A DNA stretch of 41,805 nt, taken from contig CAZOMW010000001.1 in the NCBI GenBank assembly GCA_964581135.1, positions 1 through 41,805 on the forward strand. The letters run 5' to 3'. Both the position numbers and the translations under genes were made by a program. This DNA comes from an uncultured Oscillospiraceae bacterium (GTDB lineage Bacteria; Bacillota; Clostridia; Saccharofermentanales; UBA5734). This document shows positions 3,006 through 29,754 of the stretch, piece after piece. How positions within the stretch are numbered: the first letter of the stretch is position 1; each line of letters begins with the position of its first letter. The notes below the pieces were generated by a model. That model was not told the DNA's origin, did not search any database, and was given only the letters and a program-made list of their open reading frames with translations.

Positions 3006-3578
3006 ATGAGAAACAACAGACTGTATCAGATGCTGCTTGCTGCAATGCTTAGTGCCATCGGCATAATTATTCCCCTGTTTTCACCAGTAAAAATTTTGCT
3101 GGAGCCGGCTTCCTTTACTTTGGCAAGTCATGTAGCGATATATGTCGCCATGTTTATTTCGCCGGGGGTGGCGCTTTCAGTTGCGGTTGGTACCACTTTA
3201 GGCTTCCTGCTGGCTGCTTTTCCGCCAGTTGTCGTAGTACGTGCGGCCTCTCATCTGATCTTCACTGCTGTCGGTTCTTTAGTGATAAAGAAAAACCCCA
3301 AACTAATTGATCAGACAGGTCCAATGGTGATTTTTGCGTTATTAATCAGCTTGCTGCATGCAACCACTGAAATGCTAGTGGTAATGCCGTTCTATTTCGG
3401 CGGTGCTATGACAACAGCTTATTATGCTAAAGGCTTTGTAACCTCGATTATCCTGTTGGTGGGTTTAGGCACAGTTGTTCACAGCCTGATTGATTTTGCG
3501 ATTGCGCGTGTTGTCTGGCAGCCTCTGCGCAAAATAATCAACGGTCGAAATCAAAGCAGAAGTAGAAAAACCATTTAA
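3006..3578 (+). CDS. Small 6-TM membrane protein, probable vitamin (niacin/NAD-precursor) uptake component, ECF S-component-like
   Basis: 190 aa with six hydrophobic segments and a basic C-terminal tail (NGRNQSRSRKTI). It sits behind the promoter and palindrome next to niaR. The family assignment is inferred from context and topology only. Confidence 0.6.
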   Translation: MRNNRLYQMLLAAMLSAIGIIIPLFSPVKILLEPASFTLASHVAIYVAMFISPGVALSVAVGTTLGFLLAAFPPVVVVRAASHLIFTAVGSLVIKKNPKLIDQTGPMVIFALLISLLHATTEMLVVMPFYFGGAMTTAYYAKGFVTSIILLVGLGTVVHSLIDFAIARVVWQPLRKIINGRNQSRSRKTI

Positions 3579-5304: not shown

Positions 5305-5313
5305 TGCTATAAT
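5305..5313 (+). promoter_or_regulatory. Extended -10 promoter element (TGcTATAAT) upstream of the 5423 gene cluster
   Basis: tgctataat at 5305-5313. No good -35 lies at 17 nt, and the element is about 110 nt upstream of ATG 5423. Confidence 0.4.
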
Positions 5314-5422: not shown

Positions 5423-6199
5423 ATGAACGATTCTTTTATTAAACAGTTTTCACTCGACGGAAAAACAGCGATTGTTACAGGCGCGGCCAAAACCTCAGGC
5501 CTCTGCTACGGAATGGCAAAAGCTTTGCATGATGCTGGAGCGTCAGTTGTTTTGATGGATGTTTCGCCTGAAGTTTTTGAGCTGCAAAAGTTTATGGGCG
5601 GTGAAGAAAACCGTTATTATGCTGTACAGGCAGATCTCTGTGATGAAGAAAATATGGCAACCGGCTTCAACAAGGCTGTGGAGCTGCTTGGCGGCAGACT
5701 TGACATTCTGCTCAACGGTGCCGGACTGCAGTACCGCGAAGATGCGATTGATTTCCCTTCGGAAAAATGGCACCAGATTATTGATGTAAACCTGACAGCC
5801 ATTTTCCTGCTGAGCCAGATGGCTGCCCGCGTTATGATTCCACAGGGCGGCGGTAAAATCATCAACATTGCTTCGATGACGTCTTTTGTTGCCAGCCGCC
5901 GGATTCCTGCATACGCTGCCAGTAAGGGTGGAGTTATGCAGCTGACAAAAGCGCTCTCCAACGAATGGTGTATTAAAGGCGTTAATGTTAATGCGATTGC
6001 TCCGGGTTATATGGCGACGGAACTTACTGCCAATCTGATCAATACCGATCTGGGCAAAATGACGACAGCGCGTATTGCTGCCGGCCGCTGGGGCAAACCT
6101 GAGGATCTGGCCGGTGCCGTTGTATTCCTGGCTTCACCTGCTTCCGATTATATCAGCGGCGCCATTCTGCCTGTGGATGGCGGTTATCTTGGATTATAA
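5423..6199 (+). CDS. SDR-family oxidoreductase, KduD / gluconate-5-dehydrogenase-like
   Basis: TGAAKTSGLCYG cofactor loop, NGAG, catalytic S...YAASK and the PG motif (IAPGYMATE). RBS GAAGGAGAA. Confidence 0.9.
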   Translation: MNDSFIKQFSLDGKTAIVTGAAKTSGLCYGMAKALHDAGASVVLMDVSPEVFELQKFMGGEENRYYAVQADLCDEENMATGFNKAVELLGGRLDILLNGAGLQYREDAIDFPSEKWHQIIDVNLTAIFLLSQMAARVMIPQGGGKIINIASMTSFVASRRIPAYAASKGGVMQLTKALSNEWCIKGVNVNAIAPGYMATELTANLINTDLGKMTTARIAAGRWGKPEDLAGAVVFLASPASDYISGAILPVDGGYLGL

Positions 6200-6223
6200 C
6201 AGCAACAGGCAAAGGAATTTGAT

Positions 6224-6724
6224 ATGAACAAGGATACAGTTTACATTGGCAACGACCATGGCGGCTACGAAACAAAGGTTCAGATCCTAAAATATCTGGA
6301 CGAACTGGGCATCCCCTATATTGATTTCGGCGGTCATTCCAGCGAAATCGTTCGCTATCCTTATTATGCCGCCCAGGTGGCAAGTGCTGTTTCCACTGGC
6401 AAGGCCAGCCGCGGTATTTTGATCTGCTCTACTGGCATAGGCATGAGTATCATGGCTAATAAATACCCGAATGTCCGCGCTTCCGTGTGCACGAGCCACT
6501 ATATGGGCAAGATTACCCGGGCGCACAATAATTCCAACATTCTCTGCCTCGGCGGTAAAATCACCGGCATTTTTGAAATTTTTGATATTCTGGATGCCTG
6601 GCTTAACACCGATTATGAAGGCGGCAGACATGATATCTCGCTTGGTCTGCTGGCGGAAGCTGAGGGCTGTCTGGCACAAGGCTGTGAATGGGAACCGGCA
6701 GTTCCGGAAGAAGGCAGACAATAG
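6224..6724 (+). CDS. rpiB: RpiB/LacA/LacB-family sugar-phosphate isomerase
   Basis: IGNDHGGYETK, ICSTGIGMSIMANK, HNNSNILCLGG and EGGRH motifs. A C-terminal tail of about 15 aa extends beyond the usual end. Confidence 0.88.
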   Translation: MNKDTVYIGNDHGGYETKVQILKYLDELGIPYIDFGGHSSEIVRYPYYAAQVASAVSTGKASRGILICSTGIGMSIMANKYPNVRASVCTSHYMGKITRAHNNSNILCLGGKITGIFEIFDILDAWLNTDYEGGRHDISLGLLAEAEGCLAQGCEWEPAVPEEGRQ

Positions 6725-6746
6725 CTGTAAACCGGCAGTTCCGGAA
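6693..6746 (+). repeat. 17-bp perfect direct repeat (aaccggcagttccggaa) x2, 37 nt apart, straddling the rpiB stop
   Basis: The copies are at 6693-6709 and 6730-6746, each preceded by gctgt. Confidence 0.9.
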
Positions 6747-6796
6747 AAATTAAAGCGAGAATTTTCAGCCTGGTTTGGCGGTATGGAGGTCAATAA

Positions 6797-7726
6797 ATGA
6801 CAAAAATCGCGATCATCGGCACCGGACAGATTGCGACCAGCATGGCGGTATTATTTACTGGAAACGGGCACCCCTGTTGGCTGGTTTCACGTTCAGAAGC
6901 CAGCAGTGAGCGGGCTCTGCAGGATTACAAAGATTATTTCGCTGACCTGAACAAAAATGGTCTGGTAAGTGCAGAACAGGCTGAACGCTGCCGGGATTTA
7001 CTGACAATTACCAGAGATATCAGAGAAATCAGCGACGCTGATTTTATTATTGAAGCAGTCGTTGAAAAACTCTCAGTCAAACACGATACCTACCGGCAAA
7101 TCGAAGGAATCTGCCGACCGGAAGTCGTAATTGCTTCAGTTACCTCAGGCATACCGCCCGAACAGCTTGACAGCGAAATGACACATCCGGAACGCCTCGT
7201 GGTGGCGCACCCTTTCATGCCTCCCCATCTGGTACCGTGTATCGAAATAGTCCGCGGTACGAATACCTCTGACAAAACAGTTGAAGGCACTATCGAACTG
7301 TTTGAATCTGTCGGCCGTACAGTGGTTGTTCTGAAAAAGAGTGTGTCCGGTTTTATTGCTAATCGCTTGCAGTATGCCATGCTTCGCGAGGCGGTTTATC
7401 TGATTCAGGAGGGTGTAACAACTGCGGAAGATATCGACCGTACCCTGATGACAAGCTTTGGCCCCCGTTATTCAAACATCGGACTATTCGAGCATATGGA
7501 AAATGCCGGTCTGGATCTTTGCGCCAGTATTCAGGAATATCTGTTGCCGTTGCTTAGTGTCGAACAGACAGTACAACCGGCTATCGCGGAAAAGGTAGCT
7601 GCCGGCGATCTTGGCAGTAAAACCGGCCGCGGCTTTCTGGACTGGAAAAACACAGATATGGCGGAATTCCGGCTGCGCCGCAGTGAGCCGTATTTCAGGT
7701 TCTTTAACTGGAAACTGCCGGAGTAA
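6797..7726 (+). CDS. 3-hydroxyacyl-CoA dehydrogenase-family NAD-dependent dehydrogenase (L-gulonate/L-carnitine 3-dehydrogenase-like)
   Basis: N-terminal Rossmann IAIIGTGQIATSMA, the central VAHPFMPPHL...EIV segment and a C-terminal helical domain. 309 aa. Confidence 0.85.
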   Translation: MTKIAIIGTGQIATSMAVLFTGNGHPCWLVSRSEASSERALQDYKDYFADLNKNGLVSAEQAERCRDLLTITRDIREISDADFIIEAVVEKLSVKHDTYRQIEGICRPEVVIASVTSGIPPEQLDSEMTHPERLVVAHPFMPPHLVPCIEIVRGTNTSDKTVEGTIELFESVGRTVVVLKKSVSGFIANRLQYAMLREAVYLIQEGVTTAEDIDRTLMTSFGPRYSNIGLFEHMENAGLDLCASIQEYLLPLLSVEQTVQPAIAEKVAAGDLGSKTGRGFLDWKNTDMAEFRLRRSEPYFRFFNWKLPE

Positions 7727-7746
7727 ATTAATCTTCAGGAGACTTA

Positions 7747-8745
7747 ATGGTAACCTCAGCAATTCAAAGTGTGCTCTCGCTGCTGATCCTGATCGGGGTC
7801 GGTTATGTTGTCGCCAGCCAATCCTGGTATCCAGAATCGGGCACCGCGTTTTTATCTAAATTATGTGTGCAGGTGGCAATACCTTGCCATATGTTTATCA
7901 GCACGATCACGAACATCAAAACGCCGCAGACACTGGCGGAGCTGGTACGCAATCTGCCGGTGCCATATCTGACGATTCTCGTAAGTCTGCTTATGGGTCT
8001 GGCTATAGCCAGGGTGTTTAGAATCCATCCGACCCGGCGCGGAGTTTTCATAAATGCCGTAACGTTTTCTAATGTCGTTCTGGTTGGATTTGTTGTGGTT
8101 GAAACCATATTCGGCGAAGCTGCCATGCCCGATGTCATGGTTTACTACTTTGCCAACACTACACTGTTCTGGACAGTAGGAGTAACACTACTGCGACAGG
8201 ATGGTGAAAAAGCACGTCAGCTGGCAGTCGGTCCAGACGCAACTGTAGTCGGCAGCAGGAATCGTGCCGGCATAGTGCGCCTTTTTCTACGCAGCCTGGC
8301 TTCACCGCCGCTGATGGCGGTTGTCCTTGGAATTGTGGTAATTCTGACCAGAATCGAGCTGCCGGATTTTATCATGTCGCCAATCATGAGCCTGCGCAAT
8401 ATGACAACACCGCTGGCCATGATCTTTACCGGAGCCATTATCCGAGCGACTGATTTCAAGCGAACCAAGGTTTCCCGTGATCTGATTCTGGTAATGGCGG
8501 CACGTTTTGTGGTAACACCGGTTTTCATGGTATTACTGCTCAGGCCGATACCCATTACTACACAAATGAAACAGATTTTCTTCTTGATGGCAACAATGCC
8601 CGTTATGACACAATTGGGAATTATGTCCAAGGAATCAGGCAGTGATTATGAATATGCCTCGCTGCTGGTCACATTTACAACTGCTTTCAGCATGATGGCA
8701 CTTCCGCTTTATCTTTATGTTCTTGAACGCTTTCAGATCTTTTAA
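7747..8745 (+). CDS. AEC (auxin efflux carrier / Mem_trans) family permease
   Basis: 332 aa and about 10 TM segments, in the two-halves architecture with a central polar loop that is typical of AEC transporters. Confidence 0.82.
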   Translation: MVTSAIQSVLSLLILIGVGYVVASQSWYPESGTAFLSKLCVQVAIPCHMFISTITNIKTPQTLAELVRNLPVPYLTILVSLLMGLAIARVFRIHPTRRGVFINAVTFSNVVLVGFVVVETIFGEAAMPDVMVYYFANTTLFWTVGVTLLRQDGEKARQLAVGPDATVVGSRNRAGIVRLFLRSLASPPLMAVVLGIVVILTRIELPDFIMSPIMSLRNMTTPLAMIFTGAIIRATDFKRTKVSRDLILVMAARFVVTPVFMVLLLRPIPITTQMKQIFFLMATMPVMTQLGIMSKESGSDYEYASLLVTFTTAFSMMALPLYLYVLERFQIF

Positions 8746-8773
8746 TTGCCAGTAACCGGCGGAGGTGAGCGTA

Positions 8774-10096
8774 ATGCCTTTCGCAATTGCGATCAATAAT
8801 GCTGTTATCCTCTCGGCGCACACTGATTATGTACCTTTTATCGGCAGTGTCGGTATCAGCGAGGGGCGGATTGCCTGGATCGGTGAGAAGCCGATCGCCC
8901 CTGGTGAGGCAGCAAAACGTATTGATGCTGCGGGTCATATTCTGATGCCCGGGCTGTTTAACGCTCATTGCCATGGTGATATGACTTTTGCCCGCGGTCT
9001 GGGTGATGATCTGACTTTACTTGAGCAAAATGAAGCCTTTGCAGACACTGATTGGTTCTACACATTAATCAATGATGATGATCGTTTTTATTCTCGCCAG
9101 CTTACTTATTGCGAAGCGCTGCTTTCAGGCACAACTTTCCTCAACGAAAACATGTACTGGGGTTTGGGCGAACGCTCGGCTGAAGCTATGGCTGCTACTG
9201 GTATTAAGGGCGCGCTTAGCGAAGATATCCGCTACGATTTTACCAGACCGGCTGAGCTGCTGAGCGATACCAGACTGGCAGAGCTGGCAGCCAGGGCTCA
9301 GGACTGCGGCCTGATCCCGGTTCTTGGCGGCTTATCCGAAGAAGATTATTCTGCTACTCTTTTGCAGCGTGTTGAAGCCAAACGCAGCCAGTTTGATCTT
9401 ATTCTGACTTGTCATCTGGCTGAAACTGACTGGCGGGTAGAACGCATAGCGGCGCTTTACGATTGCACACCGATTGAGTACCTGGCGCAAAACAACTGTC
9501 TGCACGAGAAAATCCTGGGTTCGCATGTCGTCTGGACGACCCCGCATGATCTTGAACTGCTGGCTAAGTACAATGTAAAGATTGTCAATACACCTCTATG
9601 TGAGATGAAAATCGCGGACGGGATTGCCCGGATTCCGGCAATGGTTCAGACCGGCCTTTGTGTCTGCCTGGGTACCGACGGCGCCATGTGGAACAACAGC
9701 AATGACATATTTCGTGAAATGAAAGGCATGCAGTTACTGCACACTGTAAACTCCGGCATTCGCAGCCTGAGTGTACAGGCTGTACTGGATATGGCAACGC
9801 TAAATGGTGCTGAAGCATTCGGACTTGGTGAGGAAACGGGCAGCATCGAAGTCGGCCGCTGTGCAGACTTGATCCTGATAAACACTGAACAGGCGCATCT
9901 GACTCCGTTGCGGCTCGGCAAACACGAAAATATAGCCTCATCTGTGGTCTACAACGCTACCGGCCGGGATGTAAGCGATGTCTTTGTCAACGGCAGTCAG
10001 GTTGTTGAACGCGGCAACTTAATGACTGCTGATCTGGCAGACATTCGAGCCCGTGTTACAGAGACTTCGGCAAAGGTTGCTGCTGCGCTAAACTGA
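8774..10096 (+). CDS. Amidohydrolase-superfamily deaminase/chlorohydrolase (MtaD/SsnA/guanine-deaminase-like, COG0402 type)
   Basis: Metal ligand motifs NAHCHGDMT (HxH), CHLAET and LGTDGAMWNNSNDIF, plus a C-terminal GSIEVGRCADLIL. ATG 8774 is preferred over GTG 8765 because GGAGGTG lies 6 nt upstream. Confidence 0.85.
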   Translation: MPFAIAINNAVILSAHTDYVPFIGSVGISEGRIAWIGEKPIAPGEAAKRIDAAGHILMPGLFNAHCHGDMTFARGLGDDLTLLEQNEAFADTDWFYTLINDDDRFYSRQLTYCEALLSGTTFLNENMYWGLGERSAEAMAATGIKGALSEDIRYDFTRPAELLSDTRLAELAARAQDCGLIPVLGGLSEEDYSATLLQRVEAKRSQFDLILTCHLAETDWRVERIAALYDCTPIEYLAQNNCLHEKILGSHVVWTTPHDLELLAKYNVKIVNTPLCEMKIADGIARIPAMVQTGLCVCLGTDGAMWNNSNDIFREMKGMQLLHTVNSGIRSLSVQAVLDMATLNGAEAFGLGEETGSIEVGRCADLILINTEQAHLTPLRLGKHENIASSVVYNATGRDVSDVFVNGSQVVERGNLMTADLADIRARVTETSAKVAAALN

Positions 10097-10232
10097 TGAT
10101 TGTGTCGCAGTTAATGGAAACTGGTGCCGCTTGAATACTGATGTCGCACGAAGAATTAATAACTGAACCGGCGACTCTTCTGTGCACAACAGGATTTATG
10201 CCTGGAATCAGCGCTAAGAAAGGGAAGACAAT

Positions 10233-11093
10233 ATGCAGCCAGCAGAGAATAATAAAAAAATCAACCGGGCCAGTGCGCCCCGCTCTGAAAATGAAGGAGT
10301 TTATCATCTGCAGCTTAAGCCCGGTGATGTGCCGCCTTACGTTATCCTGCCCGGTGCGCCTGAACGGACCCTGATTATTGCGCAGGACTGGACTGAAGTC
10401 CGGGAGGTCGCGTCCTACCGTGAATACAAAACTGTTACTGGCAAGTACAAGGATGTGCCTCTGGCAACAATCTCAACCGGCATCGGCGGCGCCAGTTCGG
10501 AAATCTGCATTCATGAGCTGAATGTGCTTGGTGTGCATACCTGTATCCGGGTCGGCACAACCGGCTGTATTGTGCCGGAATATGATCTGGGCGACCTGAT
10601 TATCCCGGTAGCGGCTGTCCGCAAGGACGGAACCTCTGCCACTTATATCGAACCGGAATTCCCGGCCTTTGCCAATACCTATGTGGTAATGGCGCTGATG
10701 CAGGCCTGCGAACGGCTCGGCTTCCGCTACGGATTGGGACTGAGTTATACAGTCGGTTCCTTCTATATCGGCCAGGGCAGGCCTCTGAATGAGGATGGCT
10801 CGGGTTACTGGCCATCTTTTGCCGATCATATTATTCCTGATCTGCAGGCCGCCCGGGTTACCAACATCGAAATGGAAGCTGCCGCTCAATTTGTGGTTGG
10901 TTATCTGCATGACATGCGGATGGGCGCGATTCTGTCAGTTGTCTCCAACCGGGTGCTCGATCGCTGGGGTGATAATGGCGGCGAAGCCAAAGCTTGTCTG
11001 GCCGCCTCGGAAGCTTTAGCTGTTCTGGCAGAGTGGGACAGAAACGGTAAGTTGCCTTTCCACACCACGGCGGAAAATGATATCATAATCTAA
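10233..11093 (+). CDS. PNP_UDP_1-family nucleoside phosphorylase (uridine-phosphorylase-like)
   Basis: VYHLQLKPGDVPPYVILPGAPERT, STGIGGASSEICIHEL, RVGTTG and NIEMEAAA motifs. A basic N-terminal extension of about 25 aa is present. Confidence 0.85.
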   Translation: MQPAENNKKINRASAPRSENEGVYHLQLKPGDVPPYVILPGAPERTLIIAQDWTEVREVASYREYKTVTGKYKDVPLATISTGIGGASSEICIHELNVLGVHTCIRVGTTGCIVPEYDLGDLIIPVAAVRKDGTSATYIEPEFPAFANTYVVMALMQACERLGFRYGLGLSYTVGSFYIGQGRPLNEDGSGYWPSFADHIIPDLQAARVTNIEMEAAAQFVVGYLHDMRMGAILSVVSNRVLDRWGDNGGEAKACLAASEALAVLAEWDRNGKLPFHTTAENDIII

Positions 11094-12031
11094 TGAGTGT
11101 TTTAGTTGTTTTGCAGCAGATAGCACCGCTGTTCATAATCATGTTCATTGGTCTCGCGATCGGGAAACTGCACATATCAAATCAGGCAATCACCCAATTC
11201 TTATCCTGGGTCTGCATTTCGGTTTTTCTGCCGGCTTCGCTGATCAAGTCGTTTTCAGCACCAATGACCGCGGCAATGATTCGTGAAGGCTCTATCCTGA
11301 TTATCGCCGGGGCAGTTACCCTGATTTTTGCCTTTTTTCTTTCTTTTGCGGTTGTTCGTATCCTGAAAATGAAAATACCGTCATCTAATATCGTTTATTT
11401 TTCGCTGATGTTCTCAAATTTCGGTTTTGTCGGCGTCGGTATTCTTACGGCAGTATATGGCGATCGGGGTCTTTTTTATATGACAATGTATGTGCTGATC
11501 ATGCGTTTTGCGTTCAATTCCTTTGGAACCGTTGTGATGCAGCGTGGTGTCGACAATAAGGAACGGCTGTCTTTCCGCCAGGTTTTTATTAATCCGCCGA
11601 TCATCGCTCTGGTTGTTTCTCTGTTTGTCATGGCCTTTCAAATTCGTTTTCCGGCTCCGGTAAAAGCCAGTATTGATTCGCTGGCAGCCTGCCTTTCACC
11701 TGTTGGCATGCTGACGGTTGGAATGATTACCGCCAATTTCCCTTTACGTGCTTTCTTCTCAAACGCCCGTGTTTATGTGCTGGTATTTTTACGTCTGCTG
11801 GGAATTCCCCTTGCTGTAACTGTAGCGATGTGGCTGGTGGGTTTCCGCGGTCTGATGCTGACGGCTTCAGCTCTTACCATGGCACTGCCGGCGGCGGCAA
11901 ATTGCTGCCTTCTGGCTGAACGGTATAATGGAGATGTAATGCTTGGCACCCAGGTTGTTACCATAACTAATATCTTTTCTGTCATCACGATGCCGATTGT
12001 TGTTGCCTTTGCGGAACGACTGGCTGGCTGA
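11093..12031 (+). CDS. AEC (Mem_trans) family permease, second copy
   Basis: 312 aa polytopic membrane protein. Its start overlaps the preceding stop (TAATG). Confidence 0.82.
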   Translation: MSVLVVLQQIAPLFIIMFIGLAIGKLHISNQAITQFLSWVCISVFLPASLIKSFSAPMTAAMIREGSILIIAGAVTLIFAFFLSFAVVRILKMKIPSSNIVYFSLMFSNFGFVGVGILTAVYGDRGLFYMTMYVLIMRFAFNSFGTVVMQRGVDNKERLSFRQVFINPPIIALVVSLFVMAFQIRFPAPVKASIDSLAACLSPVGMLTVGMITANFPLRAFFSNARVYVLVFLRLLGIPLAVTVAMWLVGFRGLMLTASALTMALPAAANCCLLAERYNGDVMLGTQVVTITNIFSVITMPIVVAFAERLAG

Positions 12032-12104
12032 TGCTTTTATTTAACCTCAGGATTTAGAGCGCTGCATTACCGGCAGGCACAGGAGCTGAATTAAGGAGAA
12101 GAGT

Positions 12105-13199
12105 ATGAACCGTTCCGAAATACCTACACCCGCAATTCTGGTGGACCTGGATGTGGTCGACACCAACATCCGGACAATGGTGGAAAACAGCCGCAAGTAT
12201 GGAATAAATCACCGACCGCATATCAAAACCCACAAAAGCGTGGAACTGGCAAAACGTCAGGTTGAGCTCGGCGCCAGAGGCATAACCTGCGCCAAACTCG
12301 GTGAAGCGGAAGTTATGGCAGCAGCCGGTTTCGATGATATTCTTGTCGCCTTTCCGCTGATCGGTGAGGATAAGTTGCAGCGGCTGCAGGCTTTGCTGGA
12401 ACAGGGCATCACTCTTCGAACAATAGTCAACAGTGAAGCCGGAGCAGCGGGTATTGCTACAGTTGGCGAACGGCTTGGCAGTCCGGTTGAAGTGCTGATC
12501 GAAATTGACGGCGGAATTGACCGCGGTGGTCTTAAGCCCGGTGAACCGGCAGTTGAATTCGCCCGCAAAATCAGGAACCTTACTGGAATCAAAGTTGTCG
12601 GTATCCTGTACTTCGGCGGCGGTATCGGCAAGAAGGATTCGCCGGTAAATGTGATTGAAAAAAGTCTGCGCGAACGCGATGAAATTATCCGGACAGCCGA
12701 GCTGCTGCGAGCGGAAGGACTGACAATGGATATTCTCAGCGGCGGCTCTTCCTTTAGCTCCAAAAACGCGGAATGTCTGGAAGGTCTGACTGAGGTAAGA
12801 GCGGGTACTTATATATTCAATGATGTTTCACAGCTGGTTATCGGCTATGCCCGGCAGGAGGACTGCGCTTTAACCTGTATTGCAACAGTTATCAGCCGTC
12901 CGGATGAGTATTCGGCAATTATTGATGCCGGATCCAAAACACTTACCTCGGAAACAAATCCGCAGCGACCGGGATACGGTTATATTATTGAGGATCCAAG
13001 GATCCAGATTGTCAAGCTTAATGAAGAACACGGATTTCTGAGGTCAGAATCGCGCCTTAAACTCAGCATCGGCGAAAAGATAACAATTATTCCCAATCAT
13101 GTCTGCCTGCTGCCAAATATGGTGGACGAAATGTATGGTATGCGTGGAGAAAAACTGGAAAAGATGCTCAAAGTGGATGCCCGCGGCTGTAATCGCTAA
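12105..13199 (+). CDS. D-TA-family PLP-dependent enzyme (alanine-racemase-N fold; D-threonine aldolase / D-serine or D-3-hydroxyaspartate dehydratase-like)
   Basis: TPAILVDLDVVDTNI...HRPHIKTHKS (PLP lysine context) and a C-terminal LNEEHGFL...IIPNHVC motif. RBS AAGGAGAAG. Confidence 0.85.
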   Translation: MNRSEIPTPAILVDLDVVDTNIRTMVENSRKYGINHRPHIKTHKSVELAKRQVELGARGITCAKLGEAEVMAAAGFDDILVAFPLIGEDKLQRLQALLEQGITLRTIVNSEAGAAGIATVGERLGSPVEVLIEIDGGIDRGGLKPGEPAVEFARKIRNLTGIKVVGILYFGGGIGKKDSPVNVIEKSLRERDEIIRTAELLRAEGLTMDILSGGSSFSSKNAECLEGLTEVRAGTYIFNDVSQLVIGYARQEDCALTCIATVISRPDEYSAIIDAGSKTLTSETNPQRPGYGYIIEDPRIQIVKLNEEHGFLRSESRLKLSIGEKITIIPNHVCLLPNMVDEMYGMRGEKLEKMLKVDARGCNR

Positions 13200-13250
13200 A
13201 TCAGCTTAATTACGAAAACCCTAGTTATGCTGCAGCGAAAGGAGCGCTTG

Positions 13251-14135
13251 ATGGCAACAGTTTCCGGCCTTAACTGGTTGGCTGAAATATATGTTCCGGA
13301 CGGCAGCGACCCGGTTGAGGCGCTGCGCCGGACAACCCATCTGGCTGTCGGCGCTCACCCTGATGACGTTGAAATTATGGCTCAACATGGGATTCTGGCC
13401 TGTTACCAACAATCCGACCTTCACTTTACAGCTGTAATTGCTGCTAACGGCGCCGGCAGTCCCAGAAACGGCAGTTATGCTGATGCCTCTGATGCCGACC
13501 TGATTAGGTTGCGTCGCCGGGAGCAGCTGCAGGCTGCCGAAGCAGGCGCCTACTCAGCGGTGGTATTGCTGAACCACAGCAGCGCCGATATCAAAAGTAC
13601 CGACATTGCAGACACTTCTCCTCTCCGCAATGACTTGCTGCAGCTGCTGGCCTTGACCAGGCCGGCGGTGCTTTATACACATCAGCCTGCGGACCGTCAC
13701 CCCACCCATGTTGCTGTTTGCGTCCGGGTCATCGAGGCTCTGCGGTCTTTACCGGTTAAGGAACGCCCTGCGGAAATTTACGGCTGTGAGGTTTGGCGTT
13801 CACTCGACTGGGTAAATGAAGCTGAGCGCATTTCGCTCGATGTTTCCGGCCGGGAGGAACTGCGGCGGACACTGTTGCAGGTTTTCAAATCGCAGATTGA
13901 CGGCGGCAAACGTTATGATCTGGCGGCAATCGGCCGTCAACAGGCAAACGCTGTCTTCGACAGCTCTCATTGTACGGATGCGTTGACAGCAGTGAATTAC
14001 GCTATTGACCTTGCGCCTGCACTTGCCGAAGCAGGTCCGGAAGCGTATCTGAACCGCTTGATTGGTGGTTTTCATAAACAGACAATTGAAACACTTCGTC
14101 TGTTTACATCTGACGCAACAAAAAAGGAGACATAA
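13251..14135 (+). CDS. PIG-L/LmbE-family N-deacetylase
   Basis: HLAVGAHPDDVEIM and ADRHPTHVA metal-site motifs. The start is moved to ATG 13251 because AAGGAG lies 6 nt upstream. The stop TAA at 14133-14135 abuts the sbcD GTG. Confidence 0.8.
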   Translation: MATVSGLNWLAEIYVPDGSDPVEALRRTTHLAVGAHPDDVEIMAQHGILACYQQSDLHFTAVIAANGAGSPRNGSYADASDADLIRLRRREQLQAAEAGAYSAVVLLNHSSADIKSTDIADTSPLRNDLLQLLALTRPAVLYTHQPADRHPTHVAVCVRVIEALRSLPVKERPAEIYGCEVWRSLDWVNEAERISLDVSGREELRRTLLQVFKSQIDGGKRYDLAAIGRQQANAVFDSSHCTDALTAVNYAIDLAPALAEAGPEAYLNRLIGGFHKQTIETLRLFTSDATKKET

Positions 14136-15296
14136 GTGCGGTTTTTTCATTTAGGGGATCTGCATATCGGTAAACAGCTGCACGGTGTAAACCTGCTTGA
14201 AGATCAGAAATTTGTCCTGGCTCAGACAGTCAGCCTGGCATCGGAGCATAAACCTGACGCAGTATTGATCGCCGGTGATATTTTCGACCGTAGTGTACCA
14301 ACTGGTGAAGCAGTCAGTGTTCTGGATGATTTTCTGACAGACCTGGCTGCCACCGGTGCGCAGGTTTTCCTGATCAGCGGCAACCATGATTCGCCTGAAA
14401 GGCTCAATTTTGCCAGCCGTTTGTTGCGCGATCAGGGTATCCATATCAGCGGCACCTTTAACGGGGAGCTGCAGCGTATCGAAATTACGGATGAGTCCGG
14501 TCCGGTACATGTTTATCTGCTGCCGTTTGTAAAACCTGCCTTTGTCCGCCCCTGGTTCCCTGATGCGGTGCTTGAAACCTATGAAGATACGGTTCGTACC
14601 ATAATCGAGGCTGACGCTCCAGATCCTGGCGCTCGCAATATTCTGCTGGCTCATCAGTTCGTCACTAACAGTGGCCGGGAGCCGGAGCGTTCTGAATCTG
14701 AAACATTTAATATCGGTGGTCTTGATAACATCGATTTGTCTGTTTTCGAGGCTTTTGATTATGTCGCGCTTGGCCACATCCATGGTCCGCAGACAATCGG
14801 TCGCCCGGGCGTCAGGTATGCCGGCTCACCCTTGAAATATTCTTTCTCTGAAGCCAATCATACAAAGGGTATCAGTATGGTTGACTTTAACAGCCGCGAT
14901 GACCTGCAGATCACTGTTTTACCTTTAAAACCGAAGCACGATCTTCGTACTATCAGGGGACCACTGGCTGAGCTTGTCGAAGCGGCCAGAGCGGCCGAGA
15001 CAATCGGTGGTGAAGTCTGCCACGACTATATACGCGCGACTCTTACTGATGAACGGGAACTGATCGACCCATTCGGTCAGCTGCGGATTAATTACCCCAA
15101 CCTGCTGACGCTGGAATTCGATAACCGGCGTACCCAAAGCCAGACGGGTACAGTTGTCGCGGGGCTCAACGCTGCAACCCGCTCACCGCTGGAGTTGTTC
15201 AGTGATTTTTATGAAATCCAAAACAACACCGAACTAACTGCTGAGCAGGAGGAAGTTCTCAGCCGGGTAATGGTGGAGGCAGGAGGGGAATCATGA
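14136..15296 (+). CDS. sbcD: Exonuclease SbcCD, nuclease subunit D (Mre11 family)
   Basis: Phosphoesterase motifs HLGDLHIG, AGDIFD, GNHD and GHIHGPQ. GTG start, with AAGGAGA 5 nt upstream. Confidence 0.92.
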   Translation: MRFFHLGDLHIGKQLHGVNLLEDQKFVLAQTVSLASEHKPDAVLIAGDIFDRSVPTGEAVSVLDDFLTDLAATGAQVFLISGNHDSPERLNFASRLLRDQGIHISGTFNGELQRIEITDESGPVHVYLLPFVKPAFVRPWFPDAVLETYEDTVRTIIEADAPDPGARNILLAHQFVTNSGREPERSESETFNIGGLDNIDLSVFEAFDYVALGHIHGPQTIGRPGVRYAGSPLKYSFSEANHTKGISMVDFNSRDDLQITVLPLKPKHDLRTIRGPLAELVEAARAAETIGGEVCHDYIRATLTDERELIDPFGQLRINYPNLLTLEFDNRRTQSQTGTVVAGLNAATRSPLELFSDFYEIQNNTELTAEQEEVLSRVMVEAGGES

Positions 15297-18200
15297 AGCC
15301 GCTTCATCTGGTCATGTGCGGCTTCGGGCCCTATGCTGAACGCTGCGAACTCCCTTTTGAAAAATTCCTCGACAGCGGTTTGTTTTTAATCACAGGCAAT
15401 ACCGGAGCCGGCAAGACGACAATTTTCGATGCGATTACTTTCGCTCTTTTCGGTGAAACCAGCGGCAGTACCCGTACAACCGAAACACTGCGCAGTGATT
15501 TCTCTGATCCGGATACAAAAACATATGTAGAGCTGACTTTCCGGCATCGCGGCAGCGAGTATCAAATTTATCGCAATCCCGCCTATGACCGCCCCAGCAT
15601 GCGCGGCGAAGGCCTGACTCGCCAGAAAGCAGAAGCCTGGCTGACCTTGCCTGACAAAACTGTAATTGACGGCGACCGCAGGGTAACCCAGTCTGTGGTT
15701 GAACTTCTGGGGCTCGACCATAACCAGTTTAAGCAGATTGCTATGATCGCCCAGGGCGAGTTTCTGCGTTTATTACTGGCAGAAAGCAAGGACAGGGCCG
15801 TAATTTTCCGGCGGCTTTTTGCTACCGGCTTTTACCTGCGGGTTCAGGATCTGCTAAAGCAGCAGGAAAAAGAGTTACGAGAGAGCTGTGAAGAGCTGAA
15901 ACGCAGCGAGCTGCAAAGCATGGCTTCGATTGTCGTAGATGACACAAACCCTGCGGCAGCTGAACTGCAAGCGCTTCTGGCGCAGGAGAGCGTTCATGCC
16001 GCTAGTGATGTCCTGCAGCTCCTGTCTGCCCAGAACAAGGCAGATGCATATACCGATAAATTGCTCTGTGACCAGAACACAATCCTTGGTAAACAGATTG
16101 ATGATCTGACAAAACAAATCGCGGCGGCAGAGTATATTAATCAGCAGTTTGCTGACCTGGCAGCGGCTCAGGCTGCTGCAGAACGCCTTACTGCCAGAGA
16201 ACCGGCTATGAAAGCGTTAGCAAAGCAAATTGAGCGCGCCGAACTCGCTGAAAACAAGATTCAGCCATCTGAAAAGGATTATCAGCGTGAAAATAACGCG
16301 CTTGCGGGATTGACAGCCCATATTGCTGAATTGGAGACCGAGGTGGGAAAACTCCTGCCCGTTATAGCAGCTTTGCAAAAAGCACTCGAGCAGGAACTGG
16401 AACGCGAGCCGTTGCGCGAACAAGCCGCGGCAGAGGTACGCGCTCTGACTGCGTCGCTGCCCGGATATGAGGAGCTGGACAAGCTCAGCCGAGAGCTTGT
16501 GCCTCAGCGTGAAAAGAAAATTAAGCTGGAGGCGGAGCACCTGCAGCTGCGGATCTCCAAGGAGGCACTTGAGCAAAACAACAACAAACTGGCCGCAGAG
16601 CTGCAGACTTTAACCGATGTTGACCGGCAACTGGTTACTATAAATAGTCGGATCGGGATTCTTAACCAGACTCGGACAACTATAAAGCAGCTGATGGGAG
16701 GTTTGCAAACAGCTGGCAAGCTGACGGAAGAATGTGATCAGGCCAGGCAATACTATAAAAAGCAGCAGGAGTTATATCAGCAGACACAGCTGAAATTCCG
16801 CAGTCAGGAAGCACTGTTTTACGATCAGCAGGCCGGTCTGCTTGCTGCCGAGCTGCAGCCCGGTCAACCGTGCCCTGTCTGCGGTTCGCTGTCTCATCCA
16901 CTTAAGGCAGTAATGACAGAACAGGCTCCGAAACAGGAACAGCTGCGATTTTTAAGTGAGCATTGTGACAAACTGCAGATGCAAGTGCAGAATGCCAGCA
17001 CTAAAGCGGGTGAACTGCAAAGCAAACTGACAACTGAACTGAAAAATATCCGCGCACGGACAGCAGATATTGTTGAAATTGACCCGGTTCCCATGCAGAT
17101 AGATGAACTGCACACCGTCTTGCAGCAGGCACTTGCCGCGCTTGAGCTCGAAGCAGAAGAAGCTGAAGCCTCTCGGCAGAATCTGGCGAATCTTTCTAAA
17201 CGCCGGGTCGAGATTATCCGGGAGACCGGAGAGGCTGAAAAGCAGCGTCAGCAGGATGATAAACGGCTGGCGGATCTGAATAGTGAACATAATGAACTGA
17301 CAGCAGCCATCAGTGCCGCAGAACGCGATCTGGCAAATCTGCGCCGTGAATTAGCCTGTCCGGATCTGGCGGCTGCACAGCAGAAACTCAAAACAGCGGC
17401 GGAGTACAGTCAGCAGTTGAAAAAAGCTTTGCAGCTTGCCCAAAGCAATTATGAGCAGGAAAGCGACAAACTAAAGGCAAAACAGACACTGCTTCAGGCA
17501 GAGAAAACACGTCTGCCTTCCGTGCAGAACCTTTCAGAAAAGGCGAGTGAGGAATATAAGAAAGCATTAAAGACTTTTGGTTTTACCGATGAAACTGATT
17601 ATAAACAGGCTTTGCTGCCGGAGTCAGAGCTGATTGCCGGTCGCGATTCATTATCAGCTTTTAAGGCTGAATGCAATCGCACAGCAGATCAGATTAAACG
17701 TCTGGAAAAGGCCACAGATAAGAAACAGACTGTTGATATCTCCGGCCTGCAAACTGAACAGCAAAAAGCCACAGAACTGAAAGCCAGTCAGGCAGACCAG
17801 GAAAAAAAGATCTACCTCCGGCTGGAGAGCAATCGTCGCCTGACGACTGAACTGCAAAAAACTGAGATAAAGCGGTTGGAACAAGAAGAGAAGTACTCTT
17901 TAATCAGCGGCCTTGCCAAAACCGCCAATGGCGAATTGACAGGCAGGCAAAAGCTCGCGTTTGAACAGTATGTGCAGGCCTCTTACTTTGAACAGGTACT
18001 GCTTGAAGCCAACAAACGCCTGTCACTTATGACCGGCAGCCGTTTTACGCTTCTGCGGCAGGAGGAAGCTTCAAATCTGCGCTCCCAGACCGGTCTGGAC
18101 ATAGAAGTTCTGGATCAGTACACAGGTTTGCGCCGGCCGGTGCGTTCTTTATCAGGCGGCGAATCATTCAAGGCTTCGCTGGCTTTAGCACTGGGACTTT

Positions 18201-18442
18201 CCGATATTGTGCAGCAATATGCCGGCGGGGTTGAAATTGATACCTTGTTTATTGACGAGGGTTTCGGAGCGCTCGACAGCGAATCGCTGGAACAATCAAT
18301 CAGTATTCTCAACAGTCTTACAACCGGCAATCGACTGGTTGGAATTATTTCCCATGTAACTGAGCTCAAGGAACGAATCGAGCATAAGGTTATCGTGCAC
18401 GGCTCAACCAGCGGCAGCAGGATTGAACTGGTCAAACCCTGA
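15293..18442 (+). CDS. sbcC: Exonuclease SbcCD, ATPase subunit C (Rad50/SMC-like)
   Basis: Walker A GNTGAGKTT, a long coiled coil with a central zinc hook CPVCGS, signature LSGGESF and Walker B LFIDEGFG. An ATGA overlap links it to sbcD. Confidence 0.92.
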   Translation: MKPLHLVMCGFGPYAERCELPFEKFLDSGLFLITGNTGAGKTTIFDAITFALFGETSGSTRTTETLRSDFSDPDTKTYVELTFRHRGSEYQIYRNPAYDRPSMRGEGLTRQKAEAWLTLPDKTVIDGDRRVTQSVVELLGLDHNQFKQIAMIAQGEFLRLLLAESKDRAVIFRRLFATGFYLRVQDLLKQQEKELRESCEELKRSELQSMASIVVDDTNPAAAELQALLAQESVHAASDVLQLLSAQNKADAYTDKLLCDQNTILGKQIDDLTKQIAAAEYINQQFADLAAAQAAAERLTAREPAMKALAKQIERAELAENKIQPSEKDYQRENNALAGLTAHIAELETEVGKLLPVIAALQKALEQELEREPLREQAAAEVRALTASLPGYEELDKLSRELVPQREKKIKLEAEHLQLRISKEALEQNNNKLAAELQTLTDVDRQLVTINSRIGILNQTRTTIKQLMGGLQTAGKLTEECDQARQYYKKQQELYQQTQLKFRSQEALFYDQQAGLLAAELQPGQPCPVCGSLSHPLKAVMTEQAPKQEQLRFLSEHCDKLQMQVQNASTKAGELQSKLTTELKNIRARTADIVEIDPVPMQIDELHTVLQQALAALELEAEEAEASRQNLANLSKRRVEIIRETGEAEKQRQQDDKRLADLNSEHNELTAAISAAERDLANLRRELACPDLAAAQQKLKTAAEYSQQLKKALQLAQSNYEQESDKLKAKQTLLQAEKTRLPSVQNLSEKASEEYKKALKTFGFTDETDYKQALLPESELIAGRDSLSAFKAECNRTADQIKRLEKATDKKQTVDISGLQTEQQKATELKASQADQEKKIYLRLESNRRLTTELQKTEIKRLEQEEKYSLISGLAKTANGELTGRQKLAFEQYVQASYFEQVLLEANKRLSLMTGSRFTLLRQEEASNLRSQTGLDIEVLDQYTGLRRPVRSLSGGESFKASLALALGLSDIVQQYAGGVEIDTLFIDEGFGALDSESLEQSISILNSLTTGNRLVGIISHVTELKERIEHKVIVHGSTSGSRIELVKP

Positions 18443-21835: not shown

Positions 21836-22804
21836 TTGAAAAAAGTAGTGATCGCTCAAAAAACCAATCCGCAGATTGTGGCTATGCTGGCCGAAAAGGC
21901 CGAAGTTGTACAGGTCAATGAAGGCAGCGTTGAAGATCTTAGAGAAAAACTCAAAGGTGCTTACGCAGTATTTCTGGGAACCTGGGTTAAATTCACAGCC
22001 GAACTTATGGATATATCACCCGAGCTTAAAGTTATCTCGCGCACCGGCGTCGGCGTCGATAATGTTGATATTGCCGCTGCCAGCGAGCGGGGAATTATGG
22101 TACTGAATACGCCAACAGCAAATGCTGTTTCCGTTGCAGAACACGCCGTTACTTTGATTCTGGCGCTGGCCAAGCAGCTGTTTTTCCTGGACGGCAGTAT
22201 TCGTGACGATAATTTCAAAGCCCGCCGTCTGAATCTGCCGATTGATGTCGACGGGAAAACTCTTGGCCTGATAGGCTGTGGTGGAATCGGACGCCTTGTC
22301 GCGCAGAAGTGTCGTCTGGGTTTCAACATGAAGGTTTTAGGCTACGACCCCTATTTGAAAACCGCACCAGAGGGAATCGAGCTGGTAAAAGACATCGAGG
22401 ATATCTACCGGCAGTCCGATTTTATTTCAATCCACTTACCGTTGACAGATGAAACCAGGAACATGATCAACGCTGAGACACTGACAAAATTCAAACCCGG
22501 AGCGATTCTGATCAATACCTCCCGCGGCGGCATTGTTGACGAAGCTGCCCTGGCGGCGGCACTGAATTCCGGACAGATAGCCGGTGCCGGTCTGGATGTT
22601 TTTTCACAGGAGCCTGTTCCCATGGAAAGCCCGTTGCTGCAGGCGAAGAATCTGATCATGACACCGCACAGCGCCGCTCTGACGCAGGAATGTGTACTCC
22701 GGGTTGCTACCGCCGCTGCTGAAGGCATTATTGCTGCTGTTGAAGGCCGTGAACCGGCTTCCGTATTCAACCAACGTGAACTGATCAGGAGGAAAGAAGT
22801 ATGA
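21836..22804 (+). CDS. D-isomer-specific 2-hydroxyacid dehydrogenase (PGDH / glyoxylate-hydroxypyruvate reductase-like)
   Basis: GLIGCGGIGRLVA NAD loop, SRGGIVDE and TPHSAA. TTG start, with AAGGAG 7 nt upstream. Confidence 0.88.
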   Translation: MKKVVIAQKTNPQIVAMLAEKAEVVQVNEGSVEDLREKLKGAYAVFLGTWVKFTAELMDISPELKVISRTGVGVDNVDIAAASERGIMVLNTPTANAVSVAEHAVTLILALAKQLFFLDGSIRDDNFKARRLNLPIDVDGKTLGLIGCGGIGRLVAQKCRLGFNMKVLGYDPYLKTAPEGIELVKDIEDIYRQSDFISIHLPLTDETRNMINAETLTKFKPGAILINTSRGGIVDEAALAAALNSGQIAGAGLDVFSQEPVPMESPLLQAKNLIMTPHSAALTQECVLRVATAAAEGIIAAVEGREPASVFNQRELIRRKEV

Positions 22805-24147
22805 ATGCACCACAATACATTCTCGGGATTGACTGCGGAACCTCTTCCGTAAAAACAGGTTTATTTGATCTTGACATGAACCTGGTAGCTGAAACAAGGT
22901 CACCGCATAGTTACATCACTAACGGACTGGCGGTCGAAATTGACCCTAACGAACTGTTTGCTTCGTTTCTGCGCTCGCTGGAAGGTTTACGCGAATACCT
23001 GCCCAATGTAAAGGCAATGGGTTTTTCCGGCCTTTGCCCTGATCTGATTCTGATGGATGAACAGGGCAACTCGCTTGATAACGGCATTATTCATCTTGAC
23101 CGGCGCAGCGAAAAACAGGGCCTGGAAATCGTTGAAAAGTTCGGTGAAGAACGTTTCATCTCAATTGCCGGCAACGTACCCTGCCCCGGCGGCATGTCAA
23201 TAACCAGCCTGATGTGGATGCGGGACAATAAACCGGAGATATACAACAAAGCCTACAAATTCGGACATACGACCAGCTATTTCATTGCCCGGCTTACAGG
23301 CAACTTCGTAATTGATCCGACCAATGCCGGCTTTAACGGACTTTTTGATACAGTAGGCATGACCGGCTGGAGCGAAGAAATCTGCGAGACCTTCGATATC
23401 CGCCGCGATATTCTGCCGGAAATTAAAATGTGTTACGAAGAAGCCGGCCGGATAACTCCTGAAGCCGCAAAAATTACCGGCCTGCCGGAGGGAATTCTGG
23501 TAATTGCCGGCGGCGGCGATACTGCCTGTTCCGTATACGGGGCCGGCTGTGACACTAATGGCACGCTGCTTAACTCAACCGGAACAGTTGAGGTTATGGC
23601 CATGTGCACAGACAAACCTCATGCCACAGGCCGTTATCTGCTGCGTCCTGCCTGCAACGATGGTCATTGGGTTGTGATGAATCTGATCGGAGCCGGCGGC
23701 GAAAGCCTCAACTGGTTCTACGATAATTTCTGCCGTGAAATGAGTAAGTCGGAATTTTTTGACGAATATCTCCCCAGCCTGTTAGGCAAACTCGATACTG
23801 ATGTTCTGATGACACCCTATCTGGCCGGCGATCGCTGCAGTGTTATCAACAAGGCCGCCACGGTAACAGGCCTGACTCTGGCTACATCCCGTGATGACAT
23901 GCTGGTTGGTCTGGTAAAAGGAATGATCGGTCAGCTGAAGGACGGCATGGACGATTTCCAGCGCTTTGCCGGCAAACTTGACGATACGATCTACTTCACC
24001 GGTGGCGGTGCCGGCGCTTTATTCGATTACAAAAGGCAGATGTTCCCTCAGTTCTCTTTTGAAGGCGTTGATAATTCTGCCATGAAAGGAATCGGCCGTT
24101 TGATCCATGAGGCTTATGAAAAAGAACTGAACTCAAAAAAACAGTAA
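22801..24147 (+). CDS. FGGY-family carbohydrate kinase (xylulokinase-like, short form)
   Basis: LGIDCGTSSVKTGLFD phosphate-1 motif and AGGGDTACSVYGAG. An ATGA overlap links it to the upstream gene. Confidence 0.88.
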   Translation: MNAPQYILGIDCGTSSVKTGLFDLDMNLVAETRSPHSYITNGLAVEIDPNELFASFLRSLEGLREYLPNVKAMGFSGLCPDLILMDEQGNSLDNGIIHLDRRSEKQGLEIVEKFGEERFISIAGNVPCPGGMSITSLMWMRDNKPEIYNKAYKFGHTTSYFIARLTGNFVIDPTNAGFNGLFDTVGMTGWSEEICETFDIRRDILPEIKMCYEEAGRITPEAAKITGLPEGILVIAGGGDTACSVYGAGCDTNGTLLNSTGTVEVMAMCTDKPHATGRYLLRPACNDGHWVVMNLIGAGGESLNWFYDNFCREMSKSEFFDEYLPSLLGKLDTDVLMTPYLAGDRCSVINKAATVTGLTLATSRDDMLVGLVKGMIGQLKDGMDDFQRFAGKLDDTIYFTGGGAGALFDYKRQMFPQFSFEGVDNSAMKGIGRLIHEAYEKELNSKKQ

Positions 24148-24157
24148 AAAGATGGCC

Positions 24158-24190
24158 ACACAGCCGGCAGCGTTAAGTTGCCGGCTGTGT
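24158..24190 (+). terminator. Strong hairpin without U-tract (possible partial terminator or mRNA stabiliser)
   Basis: Perfect 12-bp stem acacagccggca / tgccggctgtgt with a 9-nt loop, followed by tagatcgg (no T-run). Confidence 0.4.
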
Positions 24191-24245
24191 TAGATCGGAA
24201 GAAATGGAATACGGGAAATTCAGGAATTTTCAGGAGGAAAGTAAA

Positions 24246-25217: not shown

Positions 25218-25327
25218 GGCAATGGATGTTGTTACAGTCCTGACTGATTTTTAGATGTAAAATTATTAACAATAACGAAAGCAACGAACCGGTTTGATCA
25301 TTGTTTAGCAAATACAGGAGGGTAACC

Positions 25328-27310: not shown

Positions 27311-27445
27311 AGACGGTCAGTATATGCTGACTATCAGGAATAAAACTTTTTCCGGTCGCAGTTAAGCCCGTTAATTTTAGTTTCGCCAGCCTCGTTTCGA
27401 CAGAAGCGCAGGCTGGCAAACTGTTTAAAATTGAGGAGGAAAAGC

Positions 27446-28189: not shown

Positions 28190-28216
28190 TCTCGCCGGAA
28201 TGCAACGTTTGTGTGC

Positions 28217-28245: not shown

Positions 28246-28249
28246 ATAG

Positions 28250-29725: not shown

Positions 29726-29754
29726 TTAAAAATCCAGAGGCTTGGAGGCTGAAA

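Follow-up and report, generated by a model that had tools for sequence, protein, structure and literature searches.

A putative deaminase-phosphorylase pair for nucleoside breakdown within a probable deletion-built gene mosaic of a clostridial genome

The DNA analysed here (the window) is a 41,805-nucleotide (nt) stretch of contig CAZOMW010000001.1 in assembly GCA_964581135.1, from an uncultured Oscillospiraceae bacterium. Between positions 5423 and 14135 it carries nine intact open reading frames (ORFs), all on the + strand, as an initial annotation made from the letters alone had described; that annotation read them as a possible enzyme chain acting on a nucleoside-like compound with an amino or N-acetyl sugar or amino-acid moiety. 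The source genome (G000; 1.79 Mb, 84.5% complete) was compared with four of its genus, G001, G002 (the most complete, at 98%), G003 and G004; the congeners are digester-type Clostridia metagenome-assembled genomes (MAGs), and the genus probably belongs to Saccharofermentanales. The run and its immediate surroundings comprise the following features.

5305 to 5313, + strand: predicted extended -10 promoter motif TGCTATAAT, with no consensus -35, read from the sequence
5423 to 6199, + strand: KduD/gluconate-5-dehydrogenase-like SDR of a sugar-acid module (TIGR01832, PDB matches, neighbours)
6224 to 6724, + strand: RpiB-family isomerase, third paralogue of the genome (TIGR01120 above cut-off)
6797 to 7726, + strand: 3HCDH-fold dehydrogenase of the non-CoA branch, FHMPC dehydrogenase/L-gulonate 3-dehydrogenase-like (NCBIfam, PDB)
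7747 to 8745, + strand: AEC-family permease 1, AEC1 (PF03547)
8765 to 10096, + strand: COG0402-type amidohydrolase, probable cytidine-type nucleoside deaminase, core of a conserved module (motifs, structural model, linkage)
10233 to 11093, + strand: uridine-phosphorylase-type NP-I enzyme, core of the same module (profile score, residues, linkage)
11093 to 12031, + strand: AEC-family permease 2, AEC2, from an AEC-RidA-D-TA-PIG-L tail (PF03547)
12105 to 13199, + strand: D-TA/DSD1-family pyridoxal phosphate enzyme, probable D-amino (sugar) acid dehydratase or aldolase (PF01168+PF14031)
13227 to 14135, + strand: PIG-L family deacetylase (PF02585)
14136 to 18442, + strand: sbcD-sbcC, passengers joined to the run at a 0-nt gap (gap measurement)

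Every profile suggested for these genes scored above its cut-off (PF13561, PF02502, PF02737/PF00725, PF03547 twice, PF01979, PF01048, PF01168+PF14031 and PF02585). The genes are spaced by 24, 72, 20, 19, 136, -1, 73 and 27 nt, the -1 being a TAATG overlap at the phosphorylase/AEC2 junction; the short gaps and single overlap described initially are thus present, with a range of 19-136 nt in place of 20-136 nt. Because GC content is even across the nine genes (0.47-0.55, genome 0.49), there is no sign of recent import. The extended -10 noted ahead of the run is kept 5' of the SDR gene in G001 and G003, both of which have the same gene order. Its pattern has 111 copies in the 1.79-Mb genome, both strands counted, which corresponds to a chance of about 1% per 300-nt upstream region, and a sigma-70 scan did not pick it up because it lacks a -35. 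The end at 14135 that the initial annotation implied is no boundary, since the run continues ungapped into sbcD, which starts 0 nt past the PIG-L stop and is overlapped by sbcC by 4 nt; no terminator-like site was listed at the PIG-L/sbcD junction. From this arrangement the nine genes probably share the transcription of one promoter, which would extend into sbcDC; either the catabolic promoter or an internal one that was not seen may serve these two DNA-repair genes. As for the description of the cluster as regulator-less, no regulator gene lies inside or beside the nine genes, but a GntR/UTRA orthologue of the regulator of related operons lies in the window at 30767-31513.

A scan of species-representative genomes gave 40 deaminase loci outside the genus, from Lachnospiraceae, Oscillospiraceae, Christensenellaceae, Clostridiaceae, Synergistaceae and Spirochaetia, in which neighbours were counted within 10 kb; many of these loci are kin and the counts are not independent. 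The phosphorylase lies beside the deaminase in 34 of the 40, with a BMP-family binding protein (33), an ABC ATPase and permeases (30-32), a VOC protein (30), an iron-containing alcohol dehydrogenase (Fe-ADH; 29), deoB (25), deoC (23), a long transaldolase-like protein (23), DeoR (21) and transketolase (19). Five loci of a Christensenellaceae-type variant have instead GntR, class II aldolase, PHP phosphatase, DHDPS-family aldolase, aldehyde dehydrogenase and 2-hydroxyacid dehydrogenase genes. The link between deaminase and phosphorylase spans several well-supported clades of the deaminase tree, and the window phosphorylase is 72-84% identical to its distant orthologues in most loci. The two enzymes belong to a widespread nucleoside-breakdown system, and to this extent the proposed chain is supported; its remaining steps are not, for RpiB, 3HCDH, AEC1, AEC2, D-TA and PIG-L occur in 0/40 distant loci and the SDR in 1/40, as a partial 60% match. 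The full operon is present in gut anaerobes held in culture (Faecalicatena contorta, F. orotica and Mediterraneibacter massiliensis).

Three members of these distant operons have features of their own. The VOC-fold protein (L025:7141-7575 and 29 other loci) is a highly conserved part of the operon core that apparently lacks the usual four metal ligands. In the closest outgroups of the window lineage, the long operon is headed by a divergent MerR-family gene (L086:7715-8548), a third regulator type beside DeoR and GntR. The operon DeoC (L022:4496-5182 and 24 homologous loci) scores 152-158 bits, compared with 246-298 for the canonical copies of the same genomes, and departs from canonical DeoC by conserved changes in two of the active-site motifs, the first and the last; these changes, together with the coexistence of canonical copies, suggest that it has another pentose-phosphate substrate.

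Conservation of the nine-gene set across genomes, which had been proposed as a check, proved narrow: among 41 relatives searched at the DNA level, the full run was found only in G001 and G003 besides the source, at 73-75% identity, and a short SRA contig near-identical to G001 carries five of the nine genes. Synteny is just as strong in the flanks, which comprise the gene at 3006-3578, sbcDC, copA and the sugar operons downstream, so the shared order tells nothing special about the nine genes. Across 54 genomes of the family, the phosphorylase orthologue is confined to this genus. The deaminase is present in G000, G001, G003 and G004; in the 98%-complete G002 no close orthologues of the deaminase, phosphorylase, D-TA, SDR or RpiB were found, and this genome retains AEC1, AEC2-PIG-L and, on a different contig, the 3HCDH-like gene. 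Searching metagenomes with the D-TA protein gave just 9 relatives, all distant (31-43%), and none of them lies beside the nucleoside pair.

In the deaminase tree, the window sequence groups with G001 and G003 (support 100/100), this group nests with G004 (95/90), and the next branch holds L087 and L093 (100/100), two metagenome contigs carrying deaminase relatives. Both successive outgroups carry a long operon. In L093 it runs on one strand as Fe-ADH, deaminase, VOC, BMP, phosphorylase, ABC, two permeases, deoB, aldehyde dehydrogenase, AEC, RidA, D-TA and PIG-L, and the tail from the ABC permeases through PIG-L is the same in locus L104. G004 has the long operon with about 18.6 kb separating phosphorylase from AEC2 and with D-TA beyond a contig break; PIG-L was not found there. 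Searches of G000, G001 and G003 found no VOC, BMP orthologue or deoB. The gaps between the nine genes showed no detectable remnants of the lost genes (best E 0.08), which leaves tree and gene order as the basis for proposing deletions.

These observations argue, with a probability that we put at roughly 0.7, that the run is a lineage-specific mosaic built by deletion around a real deaminase/phosphorylase pair, as opposed to one pathway. In the ancestor of the genus, an AEC-RidA-D-TA-PIG-L block would have stood behind a long nucleoside operon made up of Fe-ADH, deaminase, VOC, BMP-ABC importer, phosphorylase, deoB and aldehyde dehydrogenase. The lineage of G000, G001 and G003 would then have lost Fe-ADH, VOC, the importer, deoB, aldehyde dehydrogenase and RidA, the surviving genes closing up behind a sugar-acid block of SDR, RpiB, 3HCDH-like and AEC1. 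Stepwise deletion is the simplest history. The 0-nt PIG-L/sbcD junction fits the same process, because two chromate-transporter-like genes and another ORF lie between PIG-L and sbcD in G002.

The deaminase has the TIM-barrel and beta-sandwich fold and the HxH, HxxE, His and Asp metal/catalytic set of COG0402 deaminases, with H68, H70, H217, E220, H254 and D305 kept in 96-97 of 97 homologues. Its model (pLDDT 95.4) matches 5'-methylthioadenosine (MTA)/adenosine deaminases with a TM score of 0.88-0.89 at 25-28% identity, and database labels read MTA/S-adenosylhomocysteine (SAH) deaminase. The protein does not reach the family cut-offs for MTA/SAH deaminase (MtaD; NF012037, 144 vs 779; NF004701, 255 vs 609; NF005557, 215 vs 522), and alignment to 4f0r and 4dzh did not recover the MtaD adenine/ribose pocket. 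At the position of what we take to be the base-stacking Trp stands invariant Gln88; the presumed ribose-binding Glu corresponds to variable position 96; the His of the HAPY loop, presumably also a pocket residue, is absent (Leu190, with invariant Glu192-Glu193 nearby); and the Ser following the metal Asp, for which we assume a similar role, is invariant Trp309. An ESM Atlas search returned generic amidohydrolase clusters only. The enzyme represents an uncharacterised subfamily. A deeper deaminase clade (44-47%; L050, L051, L052) adjoins two tandem Udp-like genes, one of which lacks some phosphate-binding residues.

The phosphorylase scores under the TIGR01718 equivalog cut-off (209.4 vs 280.3 bits) and, by this measure, is a divergent subfamily of Udp. 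The uracil triad is complete, Q181, R183 and R240 (E. coli Gln166, Arg168, Arg223) being invariant in 36/36 rows, and the phosphate/ribose residues His8, Gly26, Arg30, Arg48, Arg91, Thr94, Met197 and Glu198 are all present in the window protein; Udp Asp27 is replaced by Ala. In E. coli Udp, the Gln/Arg/Arg triad selects uracil over cytosine (PMC5238616), so that a cytidine substrate would need a prior deaminase.

Most likely the pair acts in sequence: the deaminase would hydrolyse the C4-amino group of a cytidine-type nucleoside to give a uridine-type nucleoside, which the phosphorylase would convert with phosphate into uracil and pentose-1-phosphate. We favour this route because the uracil triad is invariant, because the deaminase lacks the purine-pocket residues and because of the pattern of cdd, which was not found in the four deaminase-positive genomes of the genus (all MAGs) and is present in the deaminase-negative G002. 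Uracil would be salvaged via Upp, and the sugar would probably enter the pentose-phosphate pathway via phosphoglucomutase and the downstream transketolase/transaldolase-like genes; G000 has upp and a Pgm-size phosphomutase, which could handle the two products. The linkage of phosphopentomutase and aldolase typical of deo operons was not found in the window lineage, where deoC lies on another contig, and present in the distant loci at the deoB and deoC frequencies given above (25/40 and 23/40). The resemblance to 5'-deoxy-nucleoside salvage suggested initially fails, as the MtnA-type isomerase (PF01008) was not found in G000-G004, although the search recovered it in G041 and 9 controls, and RpiB acts on 5-phosphates and does not accept a 1-phosphate. 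Two other ideas were discarded. Pyrimidine auxotrophy as the reason for the pair's retention does not agree with orotidine monophosphate decarboxylase in all four congeners (it was not found in the ~85%-complete G000), and nicotinamide riboside was set aside as a substrate since COG0402 enzymes act on ring amines, not carboxamides.

Several points weigh against a deletion mosaic around a cytidine-type pair. The order of the nine genes is maintained in three species at 73-75% DNA identity. Absence calls were made in MAGs of 81-95% completeness, and upp was missed in G003. The cdd pattern comes from five related genomes, which are not independent events, and cdd coexists with the deaminase in 6/7 distant genomes checked, so plain cytidine is not certainly the substrate. 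Finally, the reading of the deaminase pocket relies on a sequence alignment and on roles presumed for MTA-deaminase residues. Two or three close relatives have five of the nine genes in the same order, and a smaller link is possible. Such a unit (deaminase, phosphorylase, AEC2, D-TA, PIG-L) would serve a pyrimidine nucleoside with an N-acyl or amino-acid group, for example N4-acetylcytidine, which PIG-L would deacetylate before the deaminase and phosphorylase act, with AEC2 substituting for the lost ABC importer. In its favour, L093 has the five genes in this order on one strand, L104 has the stretch running from the ABC permeases to PIG-L, these five were retained while six kinds of intervening gene were lost, and phosphorylase and AEC2 overlap by TAATG. 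We nevertheless consider it unlikely, given that AEC2, D-TA and PIG-L are missing from every distant locus, that G002 retains AEC2-PIG-L without the other three, that phosphorylase and AEC2 stand ~18.6 kb apart in G004, where PIG-L was not found, that elsewhere D-TA and PIG-L each occur with partners of their own, and that L093 is close to G002 (AEC 74%, PIG-L 80%), which makes the shared order one inherited event.

An ordinary adenosine/MTA/SAH deaminase, within an operon that scavenges nucleosides broadly and whose phosphorylase takes a different, pyrimidine substrate, would agree with the closest solved structures by sequence and fold, with the source labels, and with a Met three residues past HxH, as in MTA/adenosine deaminases. 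Identity of only 25-28%, scores far below the NCBIfam cut-offs and the replaced purine/ribose pocket residues (by the same alignment and presumed roles) make this quite improbable, as do the uracil-type partner and the use of deoB in the operon, which requires a free 5-OH. Least credible, and already largely refuted by gene distribution, is a single nine-gene pathway for an amino-sugar or N-acetyl-sugar nucleoside; co-directional genes, short gaps, one conserved promoter motif and intactness in three species speak for it, but the set is restricted to three congeners, SDR, RpiB, 3HCDH and AEC1 are not adjacent to the nucleoside pair even in G004 or L093, sbcDC is joined equally tightly, and RpiB cannot accept the 1-phosphate for which neither deoB nor MtnA was found.

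Within the reading of the pair as the surviving core of a larger operon, the substrate of the ancestral system deserves separate mention. Separate canonical copies of deoC and of nucleoside phosphorylase are likewise present in most of the distant genomes checked. The coexistence of canonical cdd, deoC and phosphorylase with a divergent operon DeoC suggests a non-canonical, possibly sugar-modified, pyrimidine nucleoside as the substrate of the ancestral operon. A more tentative extension, which we hold to be possible but doubtful, is that the pair catalyses the first steps of an undescribed route, independent of oxygen, for breaking down a sugar-modified pyrimidine nucleoside that is poorly handled by Cdd, Udp and DeoC; gut Lachnospiraceae and Christensenellaceae have the full operon alongside canonical copies of cdd, udp, deoB and deoC, and the window would hold a pared-down remnant. 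One candidate is 2'-O-methylcytidine, which could undergo deamination, phosphorolysis, the mutase step and cleavage by the divergent DeoC, with the substituted acetaldehyde removed by Fe-ADH or aldehyde dehydrogenase. It is named because catabolism of 2'-O-methylated nucleosides has reportedly been little explored, the newly reported route being oxygen-dependent (PMC12709175), and because aldol cleavage would yield an aldehyde for Fe-ADH. Viperin-derived 3'-deoxy-3',4'-didehydrocytidine was set aside: it would suit the 4-hydroxy-2-oxoglutarate aldolase (HOGA)-like enzyme described below and has no other support.

Genes further along the window may bear on the fate of the sugar. Orthologues of the sugar and regulator genes of the distant operons lie 8-17 kb downstream of the nine genes, as follows.

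21836 to 22804, + strand: 2-hydroxyacid dehydrogenase, orthologue of the Christensenellaceae-type operon gene (54-56% identity, 5 loci)
25301 to 27310, + strand: transketolase, homologue of the Lachnospiraceae-type operon gene (53-56%, 19 loci)
28250 to 28261, strand not assigned: perfect GntR/HutC-type palindrome 5' of the transaldolase-like gene, a site predicted from sequence
28379 to 29725, + strand: long transaldolase-like protein, deaminase partner in distant operons (54-57%, 23/40 loci)
29755 to 30642, + strand: DHDPS-family aldolase closest to HOGA (top PDB 3s5n, E 6e-49; 61-64%, 5 loci)
30767 to 31513, + strand: GntR/UTRA regulator, orthologue of the head regulator of the Christensenellaceae-type operon (Pfam GntR+UTRA; 48-53%, 5 loci)

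The transaldolase-like and HOGA-like genes are in all four deaminase-positive genomes and were not found in G002; the transketolase is also in G002 and hence not module-specific. As partners of the nucleoside pair, these downstream orthologues are more probable than the seven genes next to it. In the window they are probably under control separate from the pair: no GntR-type palindrome was found 5' of 5423, and a search for an operator common to the downstream operons and the promoter of the nine genes was negative. In the Christensenellaceae nucleoside operon (L047, L057, position 6098), a 2-mismatch palindrome with the same 3' tail stands directly after the -10. Positions 21836-31513 form a second catabolic region, which also has an FGGY kinase, a CE7 esterase and an SDR.

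The seven other genes of the run point to different contexts. The SDR scores 264 bits against TIGR01832, below cut-off, with KduD and gluconate dehydrogenases as its top PDB matches, and its nearest relatives in the phylum (49-52%) lie among genes for a TRAP transporter, 2-keto-3-deoxygluconate kinase/aldolase-like proteins, a dehydratase and a gluconokinase-like protein. An FGGY gluconokinase-like gene of the window (37420-38889, - strand) is 42% identical to the neighbour of the SDR's nearest relative, in G418, and is a likelier partner of the 5423 SDR. RpiB has two further homologues in the source genome, on contigs C10 (beside upp) and C17; no close orthologue was found in 400 genomes of the phylum at E 1e-50, and the sole orthologue in the family (G012, 59%) lies among glycohydrolase/fucosidase-like genes. 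Compared with canonical RpiB, the protein differs in the loop preceding helix 2 and is without the second Arg past the C-terminal GRH motif. For the 3HCDH-like protein the top NCBIfam match is FHMPC_DH (below cut-off) and the top PDB match 4om8; its homologues, one of them labelled L-gulonate 3-dehydrogenase, occupy varied, unrelated neighbourhoods.

AEC1 and AEC2 are only 22% identical. AEC1 is present in G002 without the nucleoside pair, and in G003 and G001 (L016:8878-9984, L017:8878-9984) it has a 37-residue insertion relative to the window protein. In L093 and L104, AEC2 comes after the long operon's aldehyde dehydrogenase; in G002 it lies beside PIG-L. In the D-TA protein, K41, H332 and C334 are invariant in 120 homologues, and the nearest relatives outside the genus (53-58%) have RidA and either a deacylase or a racemase-like gene as neighbours, in many cases preceded by a sugar ABC importer; by analogy this neighbourhood may be a module for N-acyl-D-amino (sugar) acids. 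At residues 169-170, where solved enzymes of the D-TA family align His, the subfamily has Tyr-Tyr (Tyr-Phe in the window), hinting at a distinct reaction or substrate. PIG-L, for which sequence search gave no PDB relative, has its nearest relatives outside the genus (43-47%) mostly beside ROK, SIS and hexosaminidase-like genes, an N-acetylglucosamine context.

Set against known systems, the pair is a variant form of deo-type nucleoside catabolism in which the deaminase comes from an uncharacterised subfamily. It follows the logic of import, deamination, phosphorolysis, mutase and aldolase seen in E. coli deoCABD, udp and cdd and in B. subtilis dra-nupC-pdp and drm-pupG, and in distant relatives it sits with BMP-ABC, deoB, deoC and a DeoR or GntR regulator. 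It departs from them in that the deaminase is amidohydrolase-fold and not Cdd, in that the relatives' operon adds VOC, Fe-ADH and long transaldolase-like genes to a divergent deoC, and in that the window has lost importer, deoB and Fe-ADH. With the MTA/SAH/5'-deoxyadenosine deaminases MtaD and DadD (PDB 4f0r, 4dyk, 4gbd, 1p1m) the enzyme shares its fold and the mononuclear HxH/HxxE/His/Asp metal site; low identity, the invariant Gln88, Glu192/Glu193 and Trp309 and the uracil-type phosphorylase partner set it apart. Salvage of 5'-deoxyadenosine and MTA by the dihydroxyacetone phosphate shunt uses a phosphorylase, or a nucleosidase and kinase, followed by the MtnA isomerase and a class II aldolase. 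The adjacent deaminase and phosphorylase of the window, and Fe-ADH in relatives, recall that shunt, but MtnA is missing from the genus as surveyed, RpiB has a different fold, and relatives use deoB. Lastly, the nearest relatives of D-TA stand beside RidA and an M20 or D-aminoacylase-like deacylase, as in DSD1/D-TA modules with RidA and an N-acyl-amino-acid deacylase, and RidA is kept in L093 and L104; in the window, RidA has been deleted and PIG-L follows, which is not a deacylase of those families.

A literature search, with most subscription papers outside its coverage, found no description of this operon or gene combination, and we know of no described amidohydrolase-fold deaminase for cytidine-type nucleosides. 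On the mosaic reading, the run is a clean example of genome reduction producing a convincing-looking but false operon, and the cultured gut anaerobes that carry the full operon make its substrate directly testable. If true, an anaerobic route for 2'-O-methylated nucleosides would fill a gap, and the pair could also bear on the turnover of cytidine-analogue drugs in the gut.

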